NCBI GenBank assembly: GCA_944386495.1
Contig: CALXBE010000010.1
Location: 2,822-66,821 of the forward strand
Length of the DNA stretch: 64,000 bases
Source: an uncultured Gemmiger sp.
GTDB lineage: Bacteria > Bacillota > Clostridia > Oscillospirales > Ruminococcaceae
Reading direction: 5' to 3'
In this document: positions 5,708 to 35,089 of the stretch, one piece after another
Layout: the number at the start of each line of letters is the position of its first letter
How positions within the stretch are numbered: position 1 is the first letter of the stretch
Notes under the pieces: model-generated
Database searches by the model: none
What the model saw: only the letters and a program-made list of their open reading frames with translations
What the model was told of the DNA's origin: nothing
Position numbers and translations under genes: made by a program

Positions 5708-5928
5708 AGCAAGACCCCCTTGCTTTTGGAATGAGTATGACACAGTCTGCAACAGCTTATTCAAGGGAAGAAAAACAGGTTCTGAAAAACCTTTGGATTT
5801 TTTTAAGATTATTTCAAATTGTTGAAATTTTGGTTTTTTGGGTGTACTTTTAAGGTGGTGTTGTGCTATAATAGCAACTAGATGACTGCGTTTTGAGACG
5901 ATTCAATGTATCAACGCAGGAAATTGGC

Positions 5929-8331
5929 ATGCCCCCTTTTATGTATGACCCAAGGAGGATTTTTGGTTTGGACAACAATTCTCGTAAATTAAAGACCAGA
6001 GGAGCAGTGGGAAGCAGCTCTTCCCGGCAGGCTTCTGCCCCCAAAGCGGCGGAAACTCCTGCTCCCCGAAAGCCGCATAAGAAGCGGCCGCTCTGGAAGC
6101 GGTTCCTGCGTTTCTGTGCGTATTGCTGCTGTGTGGGTGTTATCCTGTGCAGTATTCTTGCTGTTTTTCTAAGTAAGTATGTGGTGGATGTGACCGAGGA
6201 CGACGCTGAACTCCTGAATCTGGACAACCTGCGTCTTTCCATGAGCACCATCAACTATGACCGGTACGGCAACGAGTACAGCACCTTCAGCGGAAACAAC
6301 CAACGAATCTGGGTGGATGAGAGCGAAGTGCCCGAGTACCTGAAGTGGGCCATTATCTGTACTGAGGATAAGGACTTCTATCGGGAGCGGTGGGGCGTTA
6401 ACTTCAAGCGTACCATTGCCGCCTTCATCAATGAATACACTCCCATCAAGCTGTTTGATTCCCGTCAGGGTGCTTCCACTCTGGAACAGCAGCTGATCAA
6501 AAACCTGACCAACGATGACGATGTGGATGCCATGCGTAAGGTCCGGGAAATTTTCCGGGCCATTGGTTTGTCCAACCGCTATTCCAAGCAGAAGATCCTG
6601 GAAGCCTATATGAACACCATCAGCCTGACCGGTACCATAGCAGGCGTGCAGGCTGGCGCTCAGGAATACTTTGGCAAGGATGTCAGTGACCTGACCCTGG
6701 CAGAATGTGCCGTTATTGCAGGAATCACCAAGAATCCTACCCGGTACAATCCCTTTACCAACCCGGAAGATGTGCTGACCCGCCGGAATGACATTCTCTA
6801 CTTCATGTACACCCAGGGCAAGATCACGGAAGAGGAGTATACCGCTGCTTCCGCTGAACCCCTGGTGCTGGTGGAAAGCAAGAATGCAGCACAGACTTCT
6901 ACCGCTACCTCCAATAACTCCTACTTTACCGATGCTCTCTACTATGAAGTGCTGTCTGATCTCCAGACTGAGCTTGGCATGAGTGCGGATGAAGCCCGGA
7001 ACATGATTTACAACGGTGGTCTGCGTATCTACACCACTGTGGATACCGAACTGCAGTTGGCCGCTGAGCGGATCATGCTGGATGAGGACGGAAGCCGGTT
7101 CAAGCCTTTGTGGCATGAAGAAGAGGTTACCGAACTGGCCGAGGATGATATCCCTGTCTACGAGGAGGACGGAGTTACCCTCAAGACCTCTGAGAATGAG
7201 AAGGGAGAAACCGTCTACTACCGGAAGGTGCGTTCTCAGGGCTCTCTGGTCGTTGTGGACTATGACGGACAGGTCCAGGCTTTGGTAGGCGGCATCGGGG
7301 AGAAGACCAAGGATCTGGCCTTCAACCGCGCCATTGCTCCCCACCAGACAGGTTCTACCATGAAACCTGTTGCAGCCTACAGCCTGGGCATTGAGTACAA
7401 ACTCATCAACTACGGTACTGTTATTCCGGATTCGCCTTTGTACACTGCTGCAGACCGCAAGGTGCTGAACACCGATTACTGTCTCAAGTATGGTTACTCT
7501 CTGAATACTTCTGATCCCCGGACTCTGGCAAACGACGCCTGCTGGCGTGATTGGCCTGTCAACTATTCCGGCGCCGGTTCTGGAAAGAATGTGACCGTTT
7601 CTTATGCAATTGCTCAGTCTCTCAACACTGTAGCAGCCTGGGTTGGCAGCTTTGTGGGAATTGACAATATGTATAACTTTGTCACTGATACTCTTGAGCT
7701 GGAGTATATCACGGAGGCTGATAAGGATTACTCTCCTCTGGTCCTGGGTGGCCAGAGCAAGGGCCTTACCGCGGTGGAGCTGGCTGGCGTTTACACCATG
7801 TTTAACGACGGCAGTTATACCAAGCCCTATATGTACACTCGTATCGAGACCTACACTGGTGATGTCCTGATCGATAAGCAGAGCAATGCAACTACCATTC
7901 AGGCCATCAGCGAGGAAACCGCAACCATTATGAACCGGTTGCTGGCTAATGTTGTCCGTTCCGGCGGTACTGCTGCCGGCAAGAAGCCTGCGGGTCAGAT
8001 GGATGCAGCCGCCAAGACCGGTACCACCAGCGACTTTAAGGACTTTACCTTCGTCGGTATGACTCCCTACTATGTCACCGCTTTGTGGTGGGGCTTTGAT
8101 ACTCCTTACAGCTTCGATAACTTTGGAATCCGGAGTGGTACTCCCACCCAGCAGGCATGGAAGGACCTTATGGAGGAAGTGCAGGCTGATCTGGAATACA
8201 AGGAGTTCTTCTTCTCTGACAATGTGATCGTTCAGAACGGAGGATATTACACCGCAGATAATGTCACGGTGAATACCGAGCCTGATACTGCCACCACCAC
8301 TGAAACTGTGGAACCTGCTCCGGCAGCGTAA
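5929..8331 (+). CDS. Class A penicillin-binding protein (glycosyltransferase + transpeptidase, PBP1A family)
   Basis: GT51 motifs 'ICTEDKDFYRERWGVN' and 'GASTLEQQLIKN', and transpeptidase 'TGSTMKP' (SxxK). The start is ambiguous between TTG 5893, ATG 5929 and ATG 5941. Confidence 0.9.
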   Translation: MPPFMYDPRRIFGLDNNSRKLKTRGAVGSSSSRQASAPKAAETPAPRKPHKKRPLWKRFLRFCAYCCCVGVILCSILAVFLSKYVVDVTEDDAELLNLDNLRLSMSTINYDRYGNEYSTFSGNNQRIWVDESEVPEYLKWAIICTEDKDFYRERWGVNFKRTIAAFINEYTPIKLFDSRQGASTLEQQLIKNLTNDDDVDAMRKVREIFRAIGLSNRYSKQKILEAYMNTISLTGTIAGVQAGAQEYFGKDVSDLTLAECAVIAGITKNPTRYNPFTNPEDVLTRRNDILYFMYTQGKITEEEYTAASAEPLVLVESKNAAQTSTATSNNSYFTDALYYEVLSDLQTELGMSADEARNMIYNGGLRIYTTVDTELQLAAERIMLDEDGSRFKPLWHEEEVTELAEDDIPVYEEDGVTLKTSENEKGETVYYRKVRSQGSLVVVDYDGQVQALVGGIGEKTKDLAFNRAIAPHQTGSTMKPVAAYSLGIEYKLINYGTVIPDSPLYTAADRKVLNTDYCLKYGYSLNTSDPRTLANDACWRDWPVNYSGAGSGKNVTVSYAIAQSLNTVAAWVGSFVGIDNMYNFVTDTLELEYITEADKDYSPLVLGGQSKGLTAVELAGVYTMFNDGSYTKPYMYTRIETYTGDVLIDKQSNATTIQAISEETATIMNRLLANVVRSGGTAAGKKPAGQMDAAAKTGTTSDFKDFTFVGMTPYYVTALWWGFDTPYSFDNFGIRSGTPTQQAWKDLMEEVQADLEYKEFFFSDNVIVQNGGYYTADNVTVNTEPDTATTTETVEPAPAA

Positions 8332-29351: not shown

Positions 29352-30749
29352 ATGGCGGCAAAATTAAAAACCATTTATATATGCAGCGACTGCGGGGAAA
29401 CCAGTCCCCGGTGGATGGGGCGTTGCCCCTCCTGCGGCGCCTGGAACACCATGGTGGAGGATGTGGTGGATACTGCACCGGATAAAGGCAAGGGAGCAAA
29501 AGCCCCTCTGACCGGGCAGCGAAAAACTACTCTGACTCCCAGCCGGCTTTCCGAAATCAGTACAGATGAGGAGAGAAGCCGGATCGTCACCGGGATTGGA
29601 GAACTGGACCGTGTTCTGGGCGGTGGCATTGTTCTGGGCAGTGTTGTCCTTTTGGGTGGCGAACCGGGAATTGGCAAGTCTACCGTCTTGCTTCAGCTCT
29701 GCGGGGCCATCAGCCGTGATAGAAATATGCTGTATGTCACAGGTGAGGAGTCTGTCCGGCAGATCAAGCTGAGAGCGGACCGACTGAAGGTACCTCAGCA
29801 GAATATCATGCTGGTGGCAGAGAATGATATAGAAGAAATCTGCGGACTGATTGAGCAGATGAAGCCGGAACTGGTAGTCATTGATTCTATCCAGACCATG
29901 CGGTGCAATGACCTGAACAGTGCCACTGGGACTGTCTCTCAAATCAAAGAGTGTGCAGCCAGGCTGGTGGCTGTCGCAAAAAGCTACGAGATACCGGTAT
30001 TTATTGTGGGCCATGTGAATAAGGAAGGCGCGCTTGCCGGACCTAAAGTCATGGAGCACATTGTAGACACCGTGTTGTATTTTGAGGGAGATAAAACCCT
30101 GCCGTACCGTGTTCTTCGGGCCGCCAAAAACAGATATGGCTCCACCAACGAGATTGGAATGTTTGATATGACCGGAGACGGTCTCAAGGAAATTGAAAAT
30201 CCCAGCCAGCTGCTGCTGGAGGGACGGCCCCTGGGAATCAGCGGGAACTGCGTGGCCTGCACCATGGAGGGGACCCGTCCCATCCTCAGTGAAGTGCAGG
30301 CTTTGGTCGCCAAGAGCGGGCTCCAGGTTCCTCGCCGCACTGCAAGCGGGTTTGATTATAACCGGATGAATCTTCTTTTGGCGGTTTTGGAAAAGCGGGC
30401 CGGGTACCTCTTTGGCAACCAGGATGTTTATCTGAACATTGTGGGCGGATTGCGGCTTGACGAGACAGCTTGTGATCTGGCTGTCTGTGTGGCTTTGGCT
30501 TCCAGCCTGTTGGATTTGCCGGCAGGGGATAAGACGGTAGCCATTGGAGAGGTTGGTCTGGGAGGAGAAATCCGGACAGTTACTCATCTGGAATCCCGGC
30601 TGCGGGAAGCTCAGCGGATCGGATTTGAAAAAGCAATCATTCCTAAACACAGTATGGCGCAGCTTGACCTTAAACAGTTCAAAGGAATGGAGCTGATTGG
30701 GGTCACATACTTGAGAGAGGCTGTGAACGCCATCAAAATCAAGGAATAA
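29352..30749 (+). CDS. radA: DNA repair protein RadA/Sms
   Basis: Zinc finger 'CSDCGETSPRWMGRCPSCGAWNT', Walker A 'GGEPGIGKST', 'KNRYGSTNEIG', and a Lon-like C-terminal domain. Confidence 0.95.
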   Translation: MAAKLKTIYICSDCGETSPRWMGRCPSCGAWNTMVEDVVDTAPDKGKGAKAPLTGQRKTTLTPSRLSEISTDEERSRIVTGIGELDRVLGGGIVLGSVVLLGGEPGIGKSTVLLQLCGAISRDRNMLYVTGEESVRQIKLRADRLKVPQQNIMLVAENDIEEICGLIEQMKPELVVIDSIQTMRCNDLNSATGTVSQIKECAARLVAVAKSYEIPVFIVGHVNKEGALAGPKVMEHIVDTVLYFEGDKTLPYRVLRAAKNRYGSTNEIGMFDMTGDGLKEIENPSQLLLEGRPLGISGNCVACTMEGTRPILSEVQALVAKSGLQVPRRTASGFDYNRMNLLLAVLEKRAGYLFGNQDVYLNIVGGLRLDETACDLAVCVALASSLLDLPAGDKTVAIGEVGLGGEIRTVTHLESRLREAQRIGFEKAIIPKHSMAQLDLKQFKGMELIGVTYLREAVNAIKIKE

Positions 30750-30829: not shown

Positions 30830-30857
30830 TTGACAGATTCCGGGGAAGTACTATAAT
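30830..30857 (+). promoter_or_regulatory. Near-consensus sigma-A promoter directed rightwards
   Basis: TTGACA (30830-30835), 16-nt spacer, TATAAT (30852-30857). Confidence 0.6.
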
Positions 30858-30871
30858 AAAGATATAATCTA

Positions 30872-30884
30872 TTTCGCTAAAGAT
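30872..30884. repeat. Left copy of the 13-bp direct repeat (attL core)
   Basis: TTTCGCTAAAGAT, identical to 33899-33911. Confidence 0.8.
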
Positions 30885-30950
30885 TCACAATTTGGCGAAG
30901 CGTTCTGCTTCGCTAAATTTGTCTTTGGCGACATTGCGGACAGTGAGGAA

Positions 30951-30987
30951 ACCGGCTCCCGGATTACAGGAGCCGGTTCTTTTTATG
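30951..30987 (+). terminator. Rho-independent terminator just inside the element's left end
   Basis: 10-bp stem AACCGGCTCC/GGAGCCGGTT with a 9-nt loop, followed by CTTTTTAT. Confidence 0.7.
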
Positions 30988-31007
30988 CCGGCAGAAAGGG
31001 GACGTTT

Positions 31008-31229
31008 ATGCAAAACTACATGGAGGTAACGGTGCTGAGCACCAGCGCCGAGGTATTCCGGGGACGGGGTGGGGACCCCGACAGGACGATGCACCGATTG
31101 TACATTGCCGGAAGTGATGGGCGTGTGGGCTACCTGTACAGCCAGACCCCCCACGAACCCGGCGCAGTGGTTCGCCTGGGCCTGACGGAGCGGGACGGAA
31201 AGTTGAAACTGCGGGTGCTGAAGGACTGA
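31008..31229 (+). CDS. Hypothetical 73-aa protein of the element
   Basis: ATG lies 7 nt after AAAGGGG. Coding-like composition, with no motif I recognise. Confidence 0.45.
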   Translation: MQNYMEVTVLSTSAEVFRGRGGDPDRTMHRLYIAGSDGRVGYLYSQTPHEPGAVVRLGLTERDGKLKLRVLKD

Positions 31230-31244
31230 GAAAGGGGGGCGACC

Positions 31245-31298
31245 TTGACACTGTGAGAGGGGCTACGCCCTCTCACAGTGTCAAGTGTCAGTGTCAAA
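31245..31298 (+). promoter_or_regulatory. Putative double-strand origin: 17-bp perfect inverted repeat with a 6-nt loop, plus adjacent short direct repeats
   Basis: TTGACACTGTGAGAGGG-gctacg-CCCTCTCACAGTGTCAA (31245-31284) is followed by GTGTCA GTGTCAA, abutting the rep start. The loop contains CTACG. Confidence 0.55.
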
Positions 31299-31967
31299 AT
31301 GGGAAAAATGCGGAACAGGTGGTGCAGTCTGGTCCTATACCCGGAAAGCCAGGCAGAAGCCATCGAAAAGGCCACAACCACCTTCCCCTGCGTGTGGATA
31401 ACCCACGACAAGGATAAGGGGCCGGACGGGGAACTCATGAAGCCCCATGTCCATATCTTGTGTCACTTCGGGAATGCCCGGTACTTCTCCGGGATAGCCA
31501 AAGAGTTGGCGGTCCCGGAGGGGGCGGTCAATCGGGTGGACAACCCGGAAAAGGCGTTTGCCTACCTGACCCACGACAACAACCCGGAAAAGTATCAGTA
31601 CGATAAAGCGGACTTATGTTTCCATGACTTCGCCATGGGGGAAGCGGACCAGGCCGGAGCGGCAGAGGAGGAACAGGTGGTGCAACTGCTGGAAATGCCC
31701 CAGGGCCTCACCAGGAGACAGGCGGCAAGGTGGGCCCTGGAAAATGGGTGCTGGGCGGCATACCGGCGGGGGTACGCAATCTTCCGGGACATCCGGGAGG
31801 AAGAGGCGGCGCTTGGGTCTGCCCGTGCCAGGGCTGAGAGAATCGAAGCCCTAGAACGGGCGGCCCAGTACGAAAAGGAGCACCCGGTTTCTGTTGTGAT
31901 GGGTGGCGCAGTAGGGCGGCTGGTTGCCGCCAGTGAGGGGCAACCCTGGACAGGGCCGGAACACTGA
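31299..31967 (+). CDS. Rolling-circle replication initiator, pMV158 RepB-like (Rep_2, HUH endonuclease)
   Basis: 'LVLYPES', 'ITHDKDK', the HUH motif 'KPHVHIL', the catalytic-Tyr region 'AYLTHD', and 'YQYDKADL'. These follow the order and spacing I recall for pMV158 RepB. Confidence 0.8.
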   Translation: MGKMRNRWCSLVLYPESQAEAIEKATTTFPCVWITHDKDKGPDGELMKPHVHILCHFGNARYFSGIAKELAVPEGAVNRVDNPEKAFAYLTHDNNPEKYQYDKADLCFHDFAMGEADQAGAAEEEQVVQLLEMPQGLTRRQAARWALENGCWAAYRRGYAIFRDIREEEAALGSARARAERIEALERAAQYEKEHPVSVVMGGAVGRLVAASEGQPWTGPEH

Positions 31968-32045
31968 AAAGCCGGGGCCTGTCGCACAATTCCGGCAAGT
32001 TCTGGGAAGGAGTTTACATTTTGTGGAAAGTAAAAGAGGGGCAGA

Positions 32046-32585
32046 ATGGGCCGCAGTAGCTGGGTAAGTGATGATGCTATGGGCCACGTACTGGCGGCAC
32101 TTACGCCGCAGAATCGCCTGGTGATGGAGGTGTGTATCAGCACCGGGCTCCGGGTGGGGGACGTGCTGGCCCTCAAAACAGCGGCCCTCCGGCCCCGGCA
32201 AACCATCCGGGAGCAGAAAACCGGAAAGACCAGGCGGGTCCGGTGGAGAAAGGACCTCTACGAAAGGATGTTGGCGGGGGCCGGGCGGCTGTGGGTGTTT
32301 GAGGGCCGCACCGACTGGAAGAGACACCGCACCCGGCAGGCCGTGTGGAAGGACCTGCGAAGGATTGCCCGGGTATTCCTGCCCGGTGGGAGCATACCCA
32401 GAGGGGCACAGGTCAGCCCGCACAGCGCCCGGAAAATGTACGCCGTGGGGCTCCTCCATCAGACCGGAGACCTGCGGAGGGTCCAGAAGGAACTCAACCA
32501 CGATAGTGAGGCTGTGACATTGCTCTACGCAATGGCGGACCAGATAGGCAGGAAAGGAGGTGGAAAATGTGGGCATATTGGATGA
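32046..32585 (+). CDS. Minimal (179-aa) tyrosine recombinase, catalytic domain only
   Basis: The full R-K-HxxR-H-Y set is present: 'GLRVGDVLAL', 'EQKTGKTRRV', 'PHSARKMYA' and 'LNHDSEAVTLLYA'. There is no room for an N-terminal core-binding domain. Confidence 0.75.
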   Translation: MGRSSWVSDDAMGHVLAALTPQNRLVMEVCISTGLRVGDVLALKTAALRPRQTIREQKTGKTRRVRWRKDLYERMLAGAGRLWVFEGRTDWKRHRTRQAVWKDLRRIARVFLPGGSIPRGAQVSPHSARKMYAVGLLHQTGDLRRVQKELNHDSEAVTLLYAMADQIGRKGGGKCGHIG

Positions 32586-32781
32586 GCTAGATCTGTTGAA
32601 TGTACGCCTGCGACTGGTACGGGCTAAATTGGAGCGTGCCCTTGGAGCTGTCGTTGCCTGGGAAGAGGACTGGCCCAGCACGGAGGCGCTGGATGCACTG
32701 AAACAGGCGAACAAGACCCTCGTGGGGATTGTGTGTCAGGTGGACGAACTGAGGACGGAGGAACGGCTGGGGAGGCGGTGA
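32569..32781 (+). CDS. Hypothetical ~70-aa helical protein (possible directionality factor or regulator)
   Basis: GTG lies 6 nt after AAGGAGGTG and overlaps the recombinase 3' end. Heptad-like 'LDLLNVRLRLVRAKLERAL'. A strong terminator follows. Confidence 0.4.
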   Translation: MGILDELDLLNVRLRLVRAKLERALGAVVAWEEDWPSTEALDALKQANKTLVGIVCQVDELRTEERLGRR

Positions 32782-32801
32782 GCCCCGCTCCCCCTGTTGG
32801 C

Positions 32802-32842
32802 GCCCCCGTATAACAACCAAAGGTTGTTATACGGGGGCTTTT
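32802..32842 (+). terminator. Strong rho-independent terminator ending the element's coding module
   Basis: 17-bp perfect stem GCCCCCGTATAACAACC-aaa-GGTTGTTATACGGGGGC followed by TTTTG. Confidence 0.75.
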
Positions 32843-33800
32843 GCGGCTGTACGGTATAGCGGGCCTGTCGGTGCCTGGGCCCACTGGCCCAGGAGAACAA
32901 GGCAAGAAAGCCCCCCCCCAGCGTACCGCAGTACGCCCGAAAAGCGGAACGCCCCCGCCCCCCTGGGGGGGCGGGGGCTTCCGCTTGGCGGTAGCTGGGG
33001 GGGTATTAAGATAAAGGCCACGAGCCCACAAGCGCCCGGCAAGGCGGGTACCGTGGTACACCCGCCGAGCCGCTGGCGCTGTGAGGCAAGGGCCGAGGGT
33101 GCCGGGCACCGGCGGTGGCGGCCGCCGCAGGACCGGCACCCAACCGACCGACGTTGATACGGCCGGGCACCGGCCGTGCAGGGCGGTCAAGGTGGAGGCC
33201 CCCCAAAGGGGGGCACTACCTTGACTGCCCTGCACGACAGTGCAACCGGCAGACATTCGACCCCCCGGCAAGGCCGGGGGGGAGCGGGGCCGCTTGGCCC
33301 CCAGCGGGCGGCAAACAGAAAGAACAGAATCCGCCCGCTACCTTGTGTGTGTGAGGTCTGGGGCCGCTGGGCCGTCCACGGCCCTTGTGGCCCCAGGACG
33401 AACAGGCACCCAGGGCGGGGCAAGGCGGGAGCCTGACCCCTTGGGGGGGCAGGCTGGGGCCGTCCATGAAGAGATGATGCTGACCAGGCCAGCCGCCGCC
33501 GTAGGGTGGCGGCGGCTGGGCCGCAAAAAGAAAGAGACACCAGCTTCACCGGTGCCTCTTTCTTCAATAGGGGACGTTGCCGCCCCACCATCGGGCCACT
33601 ATCATAATACCACCACCGGCCCAGGCTGTCAACCCCCAATTTTGCACTGCCTACCCGTAGGCGTTACCACCCCACCGGAGGGCCGCCCCCCTCCCACGGG
33701 AGGGGCGGGGGGGTGGGCTCACCCTTCGCACCGCCTACCCGTTGCCCCTGGGCCTGACCTCTGGGCGGGGCCGGTCACCGGGTAGCTTGACCGGCCCCTC
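32843..33800. other. ~1-kb G+C-rich non-coding region made of many nested perfect or near-perfect hairpins (candidate large structured RNA or oversized single-strand origin)
   Basis: No credible ORF; the only ORFs are Pro/Gly/Arg/Ala-rich and overlap on both strands. At least 12 stems of 6-20 bp were found by eye, several enclosed by longer-range pairings. Strand undetermined. Confidence 0.4.
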
Positions 33801-33897
33801 ATGGACTTTTGATGACGTCAACTGGAGATTTGTTTCACAAAGGCTCCCGCCAGTTGACGGGGAGAATTGGAGGTGATACCATAGAGCCATGGGAGCC

Positions 33898-33925
33898 GTT
33901 TCGCTAAAGATAAGTTTAGCGAAAT
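33898..33925. promoter_or_regulatory. 28-bp palindromic recombinase-type site (11-6-11) upstream of the xer-like gene
   Basis: gTTTCGCTAAA-GATAAG-TTTAGCGAAAT. With the left flank restored the arms become perfectly symmetric (ATTTCGCTAAA / TTTAGCGAAAT). Confidence 0.5.
33899..33911. repeat. Right copy of the 13-bp direct repeat (attR core)
   Basis: TTTCGCTAAAGAT, identical to 30872-30884. Confidence 0.8.
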
Positions 33926-34036
33926 AGAGGGAAGGGCAAAAGCAGTAAAAAGGCTTTATTTATAGGCTAAGTCCGCAATAAGGCTTGGAATCATTAAAAA
34001 GCTTGGAACCATTAAATTATCATAAGGGTTTTTATT

Positions 34037-35089
34037 ATGAGTTCTTATTTGAATCAACTTCATCCTGAGCGGCATGATGCTTATCTGGATATTCCCCAGG
34101 ATGCTCAGGAATATCTTCATTATCTGGATTATGTGAAACATCTCTCGCCAAGAACCATTCATGGCTATTACCTGGATCTCAGAACTTTCTTCCGATACCT
34201 TATGATTCATAAAGGCATCGTTTCACAGGATACTCCTTTACAAGAAATCGACCCAAGAACTATAACCATCCAGGATATCAGGGCCGTTCAGAAGTCCGTC
34301 ATTTTTGCTTATCTGCAGTATCTGCAGGCCCATAATAATTCCTTCGCAGCTCGCAGTCGCAAGCTGACAGCACTGCGGGGCTTCTATCATTACCTTCTCA
34401 CCCAGGTAGGACGCATCAAATATGATCCCACCGAGGACATTGATTTAGGCTCTCCCAGAAAGACACTGCCCAGATACCTGACCCTGGAGGAAGCTCAATC
34501 TTTGTTAAATAATACACAAAGTGATTTTGCAGAACGAGATTACTGTATAATAACATTGTTTTTGAATTGCGGGATGCGGCTGGTGGAGCTGTGCGGCATC
34601 AGTATGTCGGATTTCAGAGACGATACCATCCGAATCGTTGGCAAAGGCGGCAAAGAACGGCTGGTTTACCTTAATGATGCCTGTCTGGATGCGCTTCGCC
34701 ATTATCTGCCTGTCCGGAATAAACTGAAGCTGACCGAAAAGGATGCGCTGTTTATCAGCAAACGGACTGGAAAACGGCTTACGCCCAGACGAGTGCAGCA
34801 AATTGTGGAGCGCAGTTTGAAAGCGGCCGGACTGGACGGACGCGGATTTTCCCCACACAAACTGCGGCACACTGCAGCTACGCTTATGTATCAATATGGG
34901 AATGTGGATATGTTGGCACTCAAAGAAATTTTGGGGCACGAGAATGTATCCACCACCCAAATTTACACCCACATCAATACAAAGCAGCTGAAAAATGCGG
35001 TAGCCTCCTCTCCCCTTTCTGGTGTTACTTACCCGCAAAAAAAGCTCCGGGAGGAGCCGGAGCCTGAATCAGAGGAAGAGGATTCCTAA
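34037..35089 (+). CDS. Xer-like site-specific tyrosine recombinase (350 aa, acidic C-terminal tail)
   Basis: N-terminal SAM-like domain 'LSPRTIHGYYLDLRTFFRYL'. Catalytic 'GMRLVELCGI', 'GKGGKERLVYL', 'HKLRHTAAT' and 'LGHENVSTTQIYTH'. Confidence 0.85.
   Translation: MSSYLNQLHPERHDAYLDIPQDAQEYLHYLDYVKHLSPRTIHGYYLDLRTFFRYLMIHKGIVSQDTPLQEIDPRTITIQDIRAVQKSVIFAYLQYLQAHNNSFAARSRKLTALRGFYHYLLTQVGRIKYDPTEDIDLGSPRKTLPRYLTLEEAQSLLNNTQSDFAERDYCIITLFLNCGMRLVELCGISMSDFRDDTIRIVGKGGKERLVYLNDACLDALRHYLPVRNKLKLTEKDALFISKRTGKRLTPRRVQQIVERSLKAAGLDGRGFSPHKLRHTAATLMYQYGNVDMLALKEILGHENVSTTQIYTHINTKQLKNAVASSPLSGVTYPQKKLREEPEPESEEEDS

Follow-up and report, generated by a model that had tools for sequence, protein, structure and literature searches.

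The stretch at positions 32843-33800 of the 64,000-nt window analysed here (the whole piece of DNA; all coordinates are positions in it) belongs to a ~3.02-kb integrative rolling-circle plasmid, whose non-coding region for control and maintenance it forms, and consists of separate modules. The host part of the window is a Clostridia-type chromosome of ~51% GC carrying the spoIIIA operon, radA (29352-30749) and a gene for an xer-like recombinase (34037-35089). Between the latter two genes lies an integrated element of 3.04 kb (30869-33911) with a GC content of 60-65%, in which orf73, the initiator gene rep, the recombinase gene int and a small overlapping open reading frame (ORF) are all found on the plus strand. 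The features of the element and its borders are as follows.

30830-30857, plus strand: host promoter TTGACA-16-TATAAT, 12/12 consensus, outside the boundary set by the circular contig L004
30869-30884: attL core TTTCGCTAAAGAT, left end of the element; the direct repeat recurs at 33899
30950-30985, plus strand: terminator-like hairpin with T-run between attP and orf73, read from the sequence
31008-31229, plus strand: orf73, small conserved protein; tblastn homologues with 52-62% identity
31244-31285, plus strand: candidate double-strand origin (dso), a perfect 18-bp inverted repeat with loop GCTACG, then GTGTCAA repeats
31299-31967, plus strand: rolling-circle initiator (Rep) of the pMV158/RepB type; Pfam Rep_OBD PF01719, E = 9e-17
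32046-32585, plus strand: tyrosine recombinase of 179 aa, catalytic domain only; Pfam Phage_integrase, E = 5e-13
32560-32781, plus strand: orf70/73, overlap with the end of int; gene call in L001, L004 and L006
32802-32842, plus strand: rep-int operon terminator (intrinsic) with a perfect 17-bp stem and TTTT; conserved palindrome ATAACAACC-nnn-GGTTGTTAT
32843-33522: hairpin field of 680 nt, about 15 or more GC-rich near-perfect stem-loops
33522-33603, minus strand: predicted small RNA of ~80 nt, with a 5' recognition region (single-stranded or hairpin) followed by an intrinsic terminator (33564-33525) and TTTTT
33604-33632, minus strand: small-RNA promoter TTGACA-17-(TGg)TATTAT, 11/12 consensus, extended -10
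33641-33658, plus strand: direct repeat B1 TTTGCACTGCCTACCCGT; copy B2 TTCGCACCGCCTACCCGT at 33725-33742, 89% identical, 84 nt apart
33664-33684, plus strand: predicted small-RNA target CCACCCCACC-GGA-GGGCC, two blocks of complementarity flanking a 3x3 loop that has tandem G·A
33683-33716, plus strand: hairpin and G-run motif, consensus GCTCCCGCCC-cacg-GGGCGGGCGGGGGGTGGGG, directly 3' of the target
33767-33798, plus strand: 11-bp hairpin, alifold helix 33767-33777/33788-33798, invariant in close relatives, downstream of the G-run motif
33854-33882, plus strand: outward promoter TTGACG-17-(TGa)TACCAT, 9/12 consensus with TG
33899-33928: attR, core TTTCGCTAAAGAT plus host palindrome half, TTTCGCTAAA-GATAAG-TTTAGCGAAA, a typical recombinase core

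Membership of the stretch in a circularising rolling-circle element, as proposed in a preliminary description of this DNA, is borne out by the Rep_OBD initiator and by circular copies of 3.02 kb. Related contigs and loci from other genomes or samples are designated by L-numbers. The Logan contig L004 (3,048 bp, terminal overlap of 30 nt) matches the window copy with 94-95% identity and joins window position 33911 directly to 30869, with a 16-bp overlap. Together with L092 and L093, it makes up a set of ~3.02-kb contigs that have 30-nt terminal overlaps and are 93-95% identical to the window copy, and in another sample a circular copy (L094) joins the same ends. Copies integrated at the same site were also found in other samples (L090, L091). 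The entire 32843-33800 stretch is carried by the plasmid in circular contigs from other samples. The loop GCTACG of the inverted repeat at 31244-31285 resembles the pMV158 nick sequence, TACTACG/AC. If this repeat is taken as the dso, the plus strand is the displaced strand; the position of the stretch upstream of the likely dso again agrees with the preliminary description.

The hairpins reported earlier were all recovered by a repeat finder, a perfect-hairpin scan and the alignment fold, at the same coordinates or a few bases away. The same holds for the strong terminator that precedes them, a perfect 17-bp stem (32802-32818/32822-32838) followed by CTTTTG, and for the long-range helix between a C9 run and a G-run (32907-32917/32997-33007), which encloses the hairpin at 32942-32986.

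32921-32936: hairpin
32942-32986: hairpin inside the C9/G-run helix
33024-33087: hairpin
33097-33141: hairpin
33160-33178: hairpin with a stem of 8 and the loop GCA
33175-33236: hairpin with 29-nt arms, 86% complementary
33261-33281: hairpin
33303-33339: hairpin
33358-33396: hairpin
33487-33521: hairpin
33528-33564: hairpin
33688-33705: hairpin

Perfect-hairpin coverage amounts to 0.21, compared with a 95th percentile of 0.07 in the rest of the window. Fold z-scores were determined with dinucleotide shuffles as reference. Folded as RNA, the plus strand of 32843-33800 reaches -599.6 kcal/mol against -492 ± 7.5 for the shuffles (z = -14.3), and the minus strand has a z-score of -12.1. Folded as single-stranded DNA (ssDNA), 32843-33522 reaches -250 kcal/mol against -180 ± 4.7 (z = -14.75). 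The earlier statement that no credible ORF is present was upheld: mechanical high-GC ORFs of 150-215 aa have no Pfam match and none is conserved. In copies of 93-95% identity they contain frameshifts or stops, and third-position substitutions are not in excess. Protein coding in the field is ruled out by the absent Pfam matches together with the broken ORFs in close copies.

Compensatory changes, which the preliminary description had suggested as a check, were looked for among relatives in an alignment of 32781-33911 comprising seven distinct sequences of roughly four lineages. The consensus fold contains 327 pairs, of which 24 are changed on both sides and 13 on one side; for the field, the alifold consensus has 219 pairs. 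For instance, GCGTAC/GTACGC is replaced by GCGCAC/GTGCGC, two pairs of the 33487-33521 stem are changed among relatives, and the outer stem of the rep-int terminator is preserved through compensatory changes in L004 and L005. Larger changes occur as well. The 32942-32986 stem is swapped for a different, still-pairing sequence, the stems of the 33177-33234 hairpin differ among relatives while its asymmetric internal loop GGAG/ACT is retained, and a 13-nt deletion in L005 and L006 removes the 33261-33281 hairpin. The earlier view of the stretch as non-coding and selected for structure is borne out. The field is under constraint: its identity to L005 is 0.80 (0.82 in paired and 0.75 in unpaired columns), against 0.57-0.66 at third codon positions of rep and int.

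Of the 4875 homologues of the short recombinase, most are on 2-5 kb contigs from gut Oscillospiraceae, and an integrase scan with one genome per species yielded 80 loci. Seven loci (L008-L011, L014, L020, L087), among them one on the complete chromosome of Owariibacterium komagatae 13GAM1G, NZ_AP031406, have the same radA/xer site and the same att palindrome, and each carries 0.9-1.7 kb of non-coding DNA of 65-81% GC after int. These sister elements encode a different Rep of ~320 aa, of the RepDE/pT181 type (PDB 4CWE, E = 7e-9; motif KLYNK...TRLELT). In L011, a pT181-like nick hairpin (..TATCT/AATAG..) is located upstream of rep, in the same place as the candidate dso of the window element. 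Classification of the gene upstream of int in 74 integrase loci assigned 41 to the G2P type, 10 to Rep_OBD, 7 to a Rep_trans-like type and 7 to Rep_1. Both the candidate dso of the window element and the nick hairpin of L011 are plus-strand hairpins directly upstream of rep. The combination of one short tyrosine recombinase with four unrelated initiator families implies modular swapping of Reps in a common backbone. As rolling-circle initiators occur across the family, single-stranded intermediates are a family constant, whatever the Rep, and each relative requires a priming site for the complementary strand that depends on the host and not on Rep.

GC-rich hairpin fields of at least 400 nt are found in all eight Rep_OBD elements, in all seven Rep_trans elements and in 18 other elements, and further loci have hairpin-dense stretches of lower GC. 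In every Rep_OBD and Rep_trans element the field keeps a GC content of 65-81% in hosts of 45-60% GC, and this upkeep against host composition argues for selection. The sequence of the field is confined to close relatives. Neither blastn nor a comparison of shared words against the 80 integrase loci, L088 and L089 detected field similarity beyond relatives of ~80% identity, and elements with an integrase of 55-69% identity have neither a sequence block nor a helix order in common with the field. Megablast of the region against phage and plasmid databases gave no match, and a metagenome scan with a conserved 21-mer of the field gave chance matches only, in unrelated GC-rich DNA.

The helices of the field are largely indifferent to the strand on which they are read. 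In the alignment fold, 176 of the ~215 field pairs are common to both strands, with a modest advantage for the plus strand (-375 vs -351 kcal/mol; 58 vs 31 G·T cells). In the alignment consensus, 2-4% of pair cells are wobble pairs; when sequences are folded singly, the share is 5-9% of pairs. Only 1-2 single mismatches of the G·T type occur in ~310 pairs. The strand favoured by wobble analysis differs between the window element and L011. Strand assignment via wobble pairs and GCA/TGC triloops was abandoned, as the bias is inconsistent. Loops are mostly 3-4 nt long, and of 29 family tetraloops one is GNRA and none is UNCG. A promoter search inside the field found none, and the field is flanked by terminators, on the left by one of the plus strand and on the right by one of the minus strand. 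A DNA-level role fits better than an RNA role, since stable pairing is selected with little sequence conservation and near-absence of wobble pairs, and since the field is transcriptionally insulated and present with different Rep families.

The stretch had been described as a single object, but the ~280 nt at its right are occupied by a gene for a small RNA, encoded on the opposite strand, the target of this RNA, the G-run hairpin and direct repeats. The best promoter-like site within the element is the one at 33604-33632. A TTGACA-17-TGnTAnnnT promoter is conserved at the equivalent place in sister elements and also in G2P-type elements, and an intrinsic terminator follows it after 40-120 nt across the family. 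Promoter and terminator are conserved in 12 elements, homologous cassettes being present in L008-L011, L014 (inverted), L020, L087, L023, L032, L037 and L046. On the other strand, this conserved 11/12 promoter is overlapped by the TTGCCG-17-TATCAT promoter put forward in the preliminary description, which scores 9/12 and is not kept (TTACTG in L004). The predicted small RNA folds into two hairpins (z = -5.6). In L014 the promoter-RNA-terminator cassette (5782-5913) is inverted relative to int and the G-run motif, with the target match intact; given this inversion, the small RNA behaves as an independent gene. A permissive Rfam scan matched BjrC68, a Bradyrhizobiaceae small RNA, to 33525-33602 on the minus strand with 19.6 bits against a gathering threshold of 39 (E = 0.036). 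The match coincides exactly with the predicted small RNA, but membership in this family was rejected, as the score is below threshold and the terminator hairpin is probably what drives it.

The 5' part of the predicted small RNA is complementary to the target, and the duplex would consist of 6-7 bp, a G·A-containing bubble and 10-12 bp. Covariation of small RNA and target was evaluated in 12 elements with three Rep types using 100,000 permutations. Cognate duplexes have a mean energy of -32.7 kcal/mol compared with -19.9 (sd 6.1) for non-cognate ones, the cognate target is ranked first for 11 of the 12 small RNAs, and the observed total was reached in none of the permutations. Hence the pairing blocks differ among elements yet co-vary with the target. 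The distance between the two is variable, the target lying ~65 nt outside the small-RNA gene in the window element and ~900 nt away in L032. The G-run motif that adjoins the target is the only sequence conserved across the wider family. It occurs in 13 or more loci with three Rep types, always on the integrase strand, and in L037 it adjoins the ATG of rep.

Several further observations concern this module. The B1/B2 repeat pair is interleaved with the repeat pair formed by the small-RNA gene and its target. The G2P-type relatives L037 (2965-3140) and L023 (~2190-2360) have a small ORF of ~50-58 aa, Cys-rich and similar to a zinc ribbon, in the interval from the small-RNA promoter to the target/G-run motif ahead of rep. 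A scan of IMG/VR with the G-run motif identified a single contig, the 7.6-kb viral contig L108 (IMGVR_UViG_3300037467_002595), which has the motif as GCTCCCGCCC-TTGG-GGGCGGGCGGGGGGTGGGGG at 866-893 and no homologue of the integrase or of any Rep type; the motif may have a wider regulatory role in these bacteria. Three candidate functions were tried and discarded. The G-run motif as a promoter (TTGATA-16-TAGACT in L023) is not general. As a double-strand origin it is shared by different Rep families, and nick-type hairpins adjoin rep instead. A 10-nt match of the small RNA to the ribosome-binding site of orf73 in the window element is unremarkable in duplex scans and not conserved.

In the model that we propose for this module, the strong conserved promoter would drive a minus-strand RNA of ~80 nt ended by the intrinsic terminator, and the 5' part of this RNA would pair with plus-strand RNA at 33664-33684, beside the G-run hairpin. 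Because the G-run motif is the ribosome-binding region of rep in a distant relative (L037), we infer antisense, copy-number or incompatibility control. The arrangement suggests that the small-RNA module would act like plasmid counter-transcripts and govern how the replication region is translated or expressed. Some points speak against such a role. No sigma-70-type plus-strand promoter was found upstream of the target in the window or in the other elements, and in the window element the G-run motif precedes only a 14-codon ORF instead of rep. A formal alternative is that the co-varying direct repeats are bound by a protein and do not act through RNA pairing.

Like known counter-transcribed RNAs (ctRNAs; pMV158 RNAII, pT181 RNAI/II, R1 CopA/CopT and pAD1 par RNAI/RNAII), the predicted small RNA is short, has its own promoter and terminator, and would pair through its 5' region beside a hairpin and a ribosome-binding-like motif of the replication region. 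As in incompatibility determinants, the recognition sequences diverge fast and co-vary. Unlike ctRNAs, on the other hand, the small RNA is not encoded opposite its target, from which it is separated by 70-900 nt, and the cassette is invertible (L014). Its complementarity derives from a diverged direct repeat; in this respect pAD1 par comes closest. Further differences are the 3x3 G·A bubble conserved in the duplex and the lack of a match to an Rfam ctRNA family, and location of the target in the rep leader, as with ctRNAs, is here seen only in L037.

As for the hairpin field itself, its best reading, at about even odds, is a single-strand origin (sso) or ssDNA-folding region, possibly with several redundant origins. 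Rep would nick the origin hairpin upstream of rep and the plus strand would be peeled off. The field would be among the last plus-strand parts to be exposed and, once exposed, would fold and offer one or more entry sites for host priming of the complementary strand. Characterised sso elements measure 168-340 nt (PMC4595007), or about 160-340 nt (PMC4595007, PMC5703833). They lie in non-coding DNA, fold only in the single-stranded state, do not depend on Rep and are flexible in position (PMC4595007, PMC5703833). Their function follows structure over sequence, and some plasmids carry two of them, for different hosts (PMC4595007, PMC5703833). The ssoA, ssoU, ssoT and ssoW classes have the conserved motifs RSB and CS-6 (TAGCGT/A) (PMC4598088, PMC5703833). 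In keeping with these generic traits, the field belongs to the non-coding part of a rolling-circle replicon, and its displaced strand is extensively structured (z = -14.75). Just as in the known rolling-circle sso elements (ssoA/palA, ssoU, ssoT, ssoW, ssoL), it is non-coding, pairs within the strand, does not depend on the type of Rep, lies upstream of the dso, and retains structure while its sequence drifts.

The idea of a lagging-strand origin, already raised in the preliminary description, therefore remains a reasonable reading given the position of the field, but the signature sequences of ssoA, ssoU, ssoT and ssoW are absent, and a number of results weigh against it. No RSB (TTATGCCGAGAAAATTT) is found, the best match having 6 mismatches, and no CS-6 TAGCG[TA] is present on the plus strand of the element. 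The field of 680 nt, in a non-coding stretch of ~1.06 kb, is 2-4 times as long as characterised sso elements (680-960 nt vs ~160-340 nt for the lengths compared), and it is GC-rich whereas those are AT-rich. With RSB and CS-6 absent and a length 2-4 times greater, the field is outside the described sso classes. Inspection by eye revealed no folded single-strand promoter in the field. As for the one strong promoter (33604-33632), folding of the plus strand leaves its -35 unpaired and places its -10 in a loop; these unpaired boxes and the inversion of the cassette in L014 led to its rejection as a folded sso promoter. Since the helices are nearly strand-symmetric, the orientation dependence that defines an sso is not readable from them, and wobble strand bias as a proxy for orientation is weak and inconsistent. 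Finally, some relatives (e.g. L037) show no GC-rich field, and the position of the field relative to rep varies, the field being located between the G-run motif and rep in L023 and L032.

Hairpin clusters of related function are known from other replicons. The intergenic region of Ff phages (f1/M13) is a hairpin cluster on the displaced strand that combines complementary-strand priming with packaging, and sti of the Streptomyces plasmid pIJ101, likewise a cluster of several hairpins on the displaced strand for complementary-strand priming, is an sso or second-strand site in GC-rich DNA. In common with Ff phages, most relatives of the element carry an initiator of the G2P type (phage gene II-like). 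Unlike these phages the element has no coat or assembly genes, and the field is larger than either the Ff intergenic region or sti, to which it is likened by structure and not by sequence.

Four other explanations were weighed against a role of the field in ssDNA. The field, or the whole 1 kb, could be a large structured non-coding RNA, acting as RNA and produced when transcription runs past the rep-int operon terminator on the plus strand or past the terminator of the small RNA on the minus strand. Its extreme RNA fold z-scores on both strands, the base pairs preserved by compensatory changes and the slight plus-strand edge in the alignment fold (-375 vs -351 kcal/mol; 58 vs 31 G·T cells) would all suit an RNA. 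Transcripts might also enter, as the operon terminator has only four Ts and the small-RNA terminator is weaker in the plus direction, and in L023 and L032 the hairpin-rich stretch between the G-run motif and rep is a probable mRNA leader. We nevertheless judge this explanation unlikely. A scan of Rfam 15, as proposed in the preliminary description, gave no match at the gathering threshold in the whole window and, at E <= 10, only generic mir-like hairpins. There is no promoter in the field or at its edge, and the terminators at its two ends both point inward. Wobble pairs are scarce, the preferred strand is not the same in the window element and L011, only one of the 29 tetraloops is GNRA and none is UNCG. 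Long, non-coding, highly structured and carried by a mobile element, the field is reminiscent of GOLLD, ROOL, OLE, HEARO and raiA. It differs from them in having no Rfam match, conserved core, tetraloop or tertiary-motif signature or promoter, and in its near strand symmetry. Known large ornate RNAs retain conserved cores, unlike the field, which has no block or helix order in common with relatives of 55-69% integrase identity. Lacking an Rfam family, a field promoter, strand bias, GNRA/UNCG enrichment and an alignable core, one large ornate RNA over the region, as envisaged earlier, is not supported. A more sweeping formulation holds the field to be a new kind of element, either a giant, fast-diversifying multi-hairpin sso or 'ssDNA armour' of a large, undescribed family of integrative rolling-circle mini-plasmids of gut Oscillospiraceae, or a ~0.7-kb structured RNA without known relatives, in both cases with a trans-encoded antisense RNA co-evolving with the G-run hairpin; taken as a whole, we regard it as quite unlikely.

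The field might also be functionless palindromic filler, generated by template-switch (snap-back) errors while single strands are replicated, with arms homogenised mechanically and not by selection. Perfect stems with 3-4-nt loops are what snap-back synthesis would yield, whole hairpins are replaced or deleted between 80% relatives (32942-32986; 33261-33281 in L005 and L006), the field is unalignable in more distant relatives, and in some it is missing. Such an origin is hard to reconcile with a field identity of 0.80 against 0.57-0.66 at third positions, with unpaired columns being constrained as well (0.75). Nor would it account for asymmetric internal loops retained amid changing stems (GGAG/ACT in 33177-33234), or for the 65-81% GC that every Rep_OBD and Rep_trans element maintains although its host has 45-60%; we find it improbable. 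A function of the hairpins in double-stranded DNA or in transfer, as oriT-like or recombination sites for helpers or as a device against host plasmid defences, would be in accordance with tiny elements that have no transfer genes and must depend on helpers, and with hairpins that are numerous and diverse. Rolling-circle Reps are able to act as relaxases (PMC5703833), which also counts in its favour. The hairpins have no repeated consensus, hence no single protein site is evident, and there are no conserved nick-site-like loops; the idea is purely speculative and highly improbable. Finally, a patchwork of REP/MITE-like host palindromes dispersed in the genome, considered in the preliminary description, accounts for little beyond the palindromic appearance. 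No part of 32843-33800 recurs within the 64-kb window, the stretch moves with the plasmid in circular contigs from other samples and its GC content is unlike that of the host, leaving this explanation a practically negligible probability.

The remaining features concern integration and transcription across the att site. The host att site is a palindrome, ATTTCGCTAAAT-N6-ATTTAGCGAAAT, between radA and the xer-like recombinase gene, and it is occupied by at least eight elements in different genera. The element is comparable to integrative mobilizable elements or XerCD-exploiting elements (IMEX). It shares with these a very small size and a palindromic recombinase-type site (10-14-bp arms, 6-bp spacer) next to an xer-like gene. 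It differs in having its own short tyrosine recombinase and a rolling-circle Rep, and the site is not a chromosomal dif as far as visible. Integration swaps promoters. The 12/12 host promoter at 30830-30857, which normally lies upstream of the attB palindrome and the xer-like gene, points into the integrated element, and the outward promoter of the element reads toward the xer-like gene. In the circle, the outward promoter (33854-33882) points across att to orf73-rep. Equivalent TTGACA-17-TGGTAnnnT promoters were located by eye 25-40 nt to the left of attR in L010, L014, L020, L008, L011 and L087. A 9-bp inverted repeat, GTCAACTGG ... CCAGTTGAC (33816-33859), overlaps the -35 box of the outward promoter and may be an operator.

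At the opposite end, the hairpin at 30950-30985 is a possible attenuator that would stop or weaken transcripts crossing att. A hairpin with T-run before the orf73 homologue is also found in L008, L009, L011 and L087. Homologues of orf73 were detected by tblastn at the same position in L008-L011, L014, L020 and L087; the protein has no Pfam or NCBIfam match, and orf70/73 had no match in family searches. The palindrome ACAACC-nnn-GGTTGT is located in the operon terminator of the window element (32810-32832) and in the spacer of the small-RNA promoter in L010 (~5985-6013), L014 (~5782-5810) and L020 (~2873-2901). It may be an operator for an element-encoded regulator. Lastly, L043 contains two tandem copies of a G2P-type element with a period of ~3417 nt (int at ~3999 and ~7416), which reflects either tandem integration or a circular genome assembled twice.

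A literature search for the element family or for GC-rich giant sso elements found none, and, to judge from the literature and databases searched, neither the small RNA/target module nor the hairpin fields across the family have been described before. With thousands of integrase homologues, these ~3-kb elements are apparently very common in human and animal gut Clostridia. They pair a minimal tyrosine recombinase with interchangeable rolling-circle initiators of four families, and about one third of each element genome is non-coding DNA that is kept GC-rich and hairpin-rich against host composition. If the field is the lagging-strand origin, it would far exceed all described ones in size and GC content and offer a model for the evolution of such origins by structure alone. 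The small RNA and its co-varying target, in turn, would constitute a testable copy-number or incompatibility switch and a possible handle for vectors in genetically intractable gut anaerobes.

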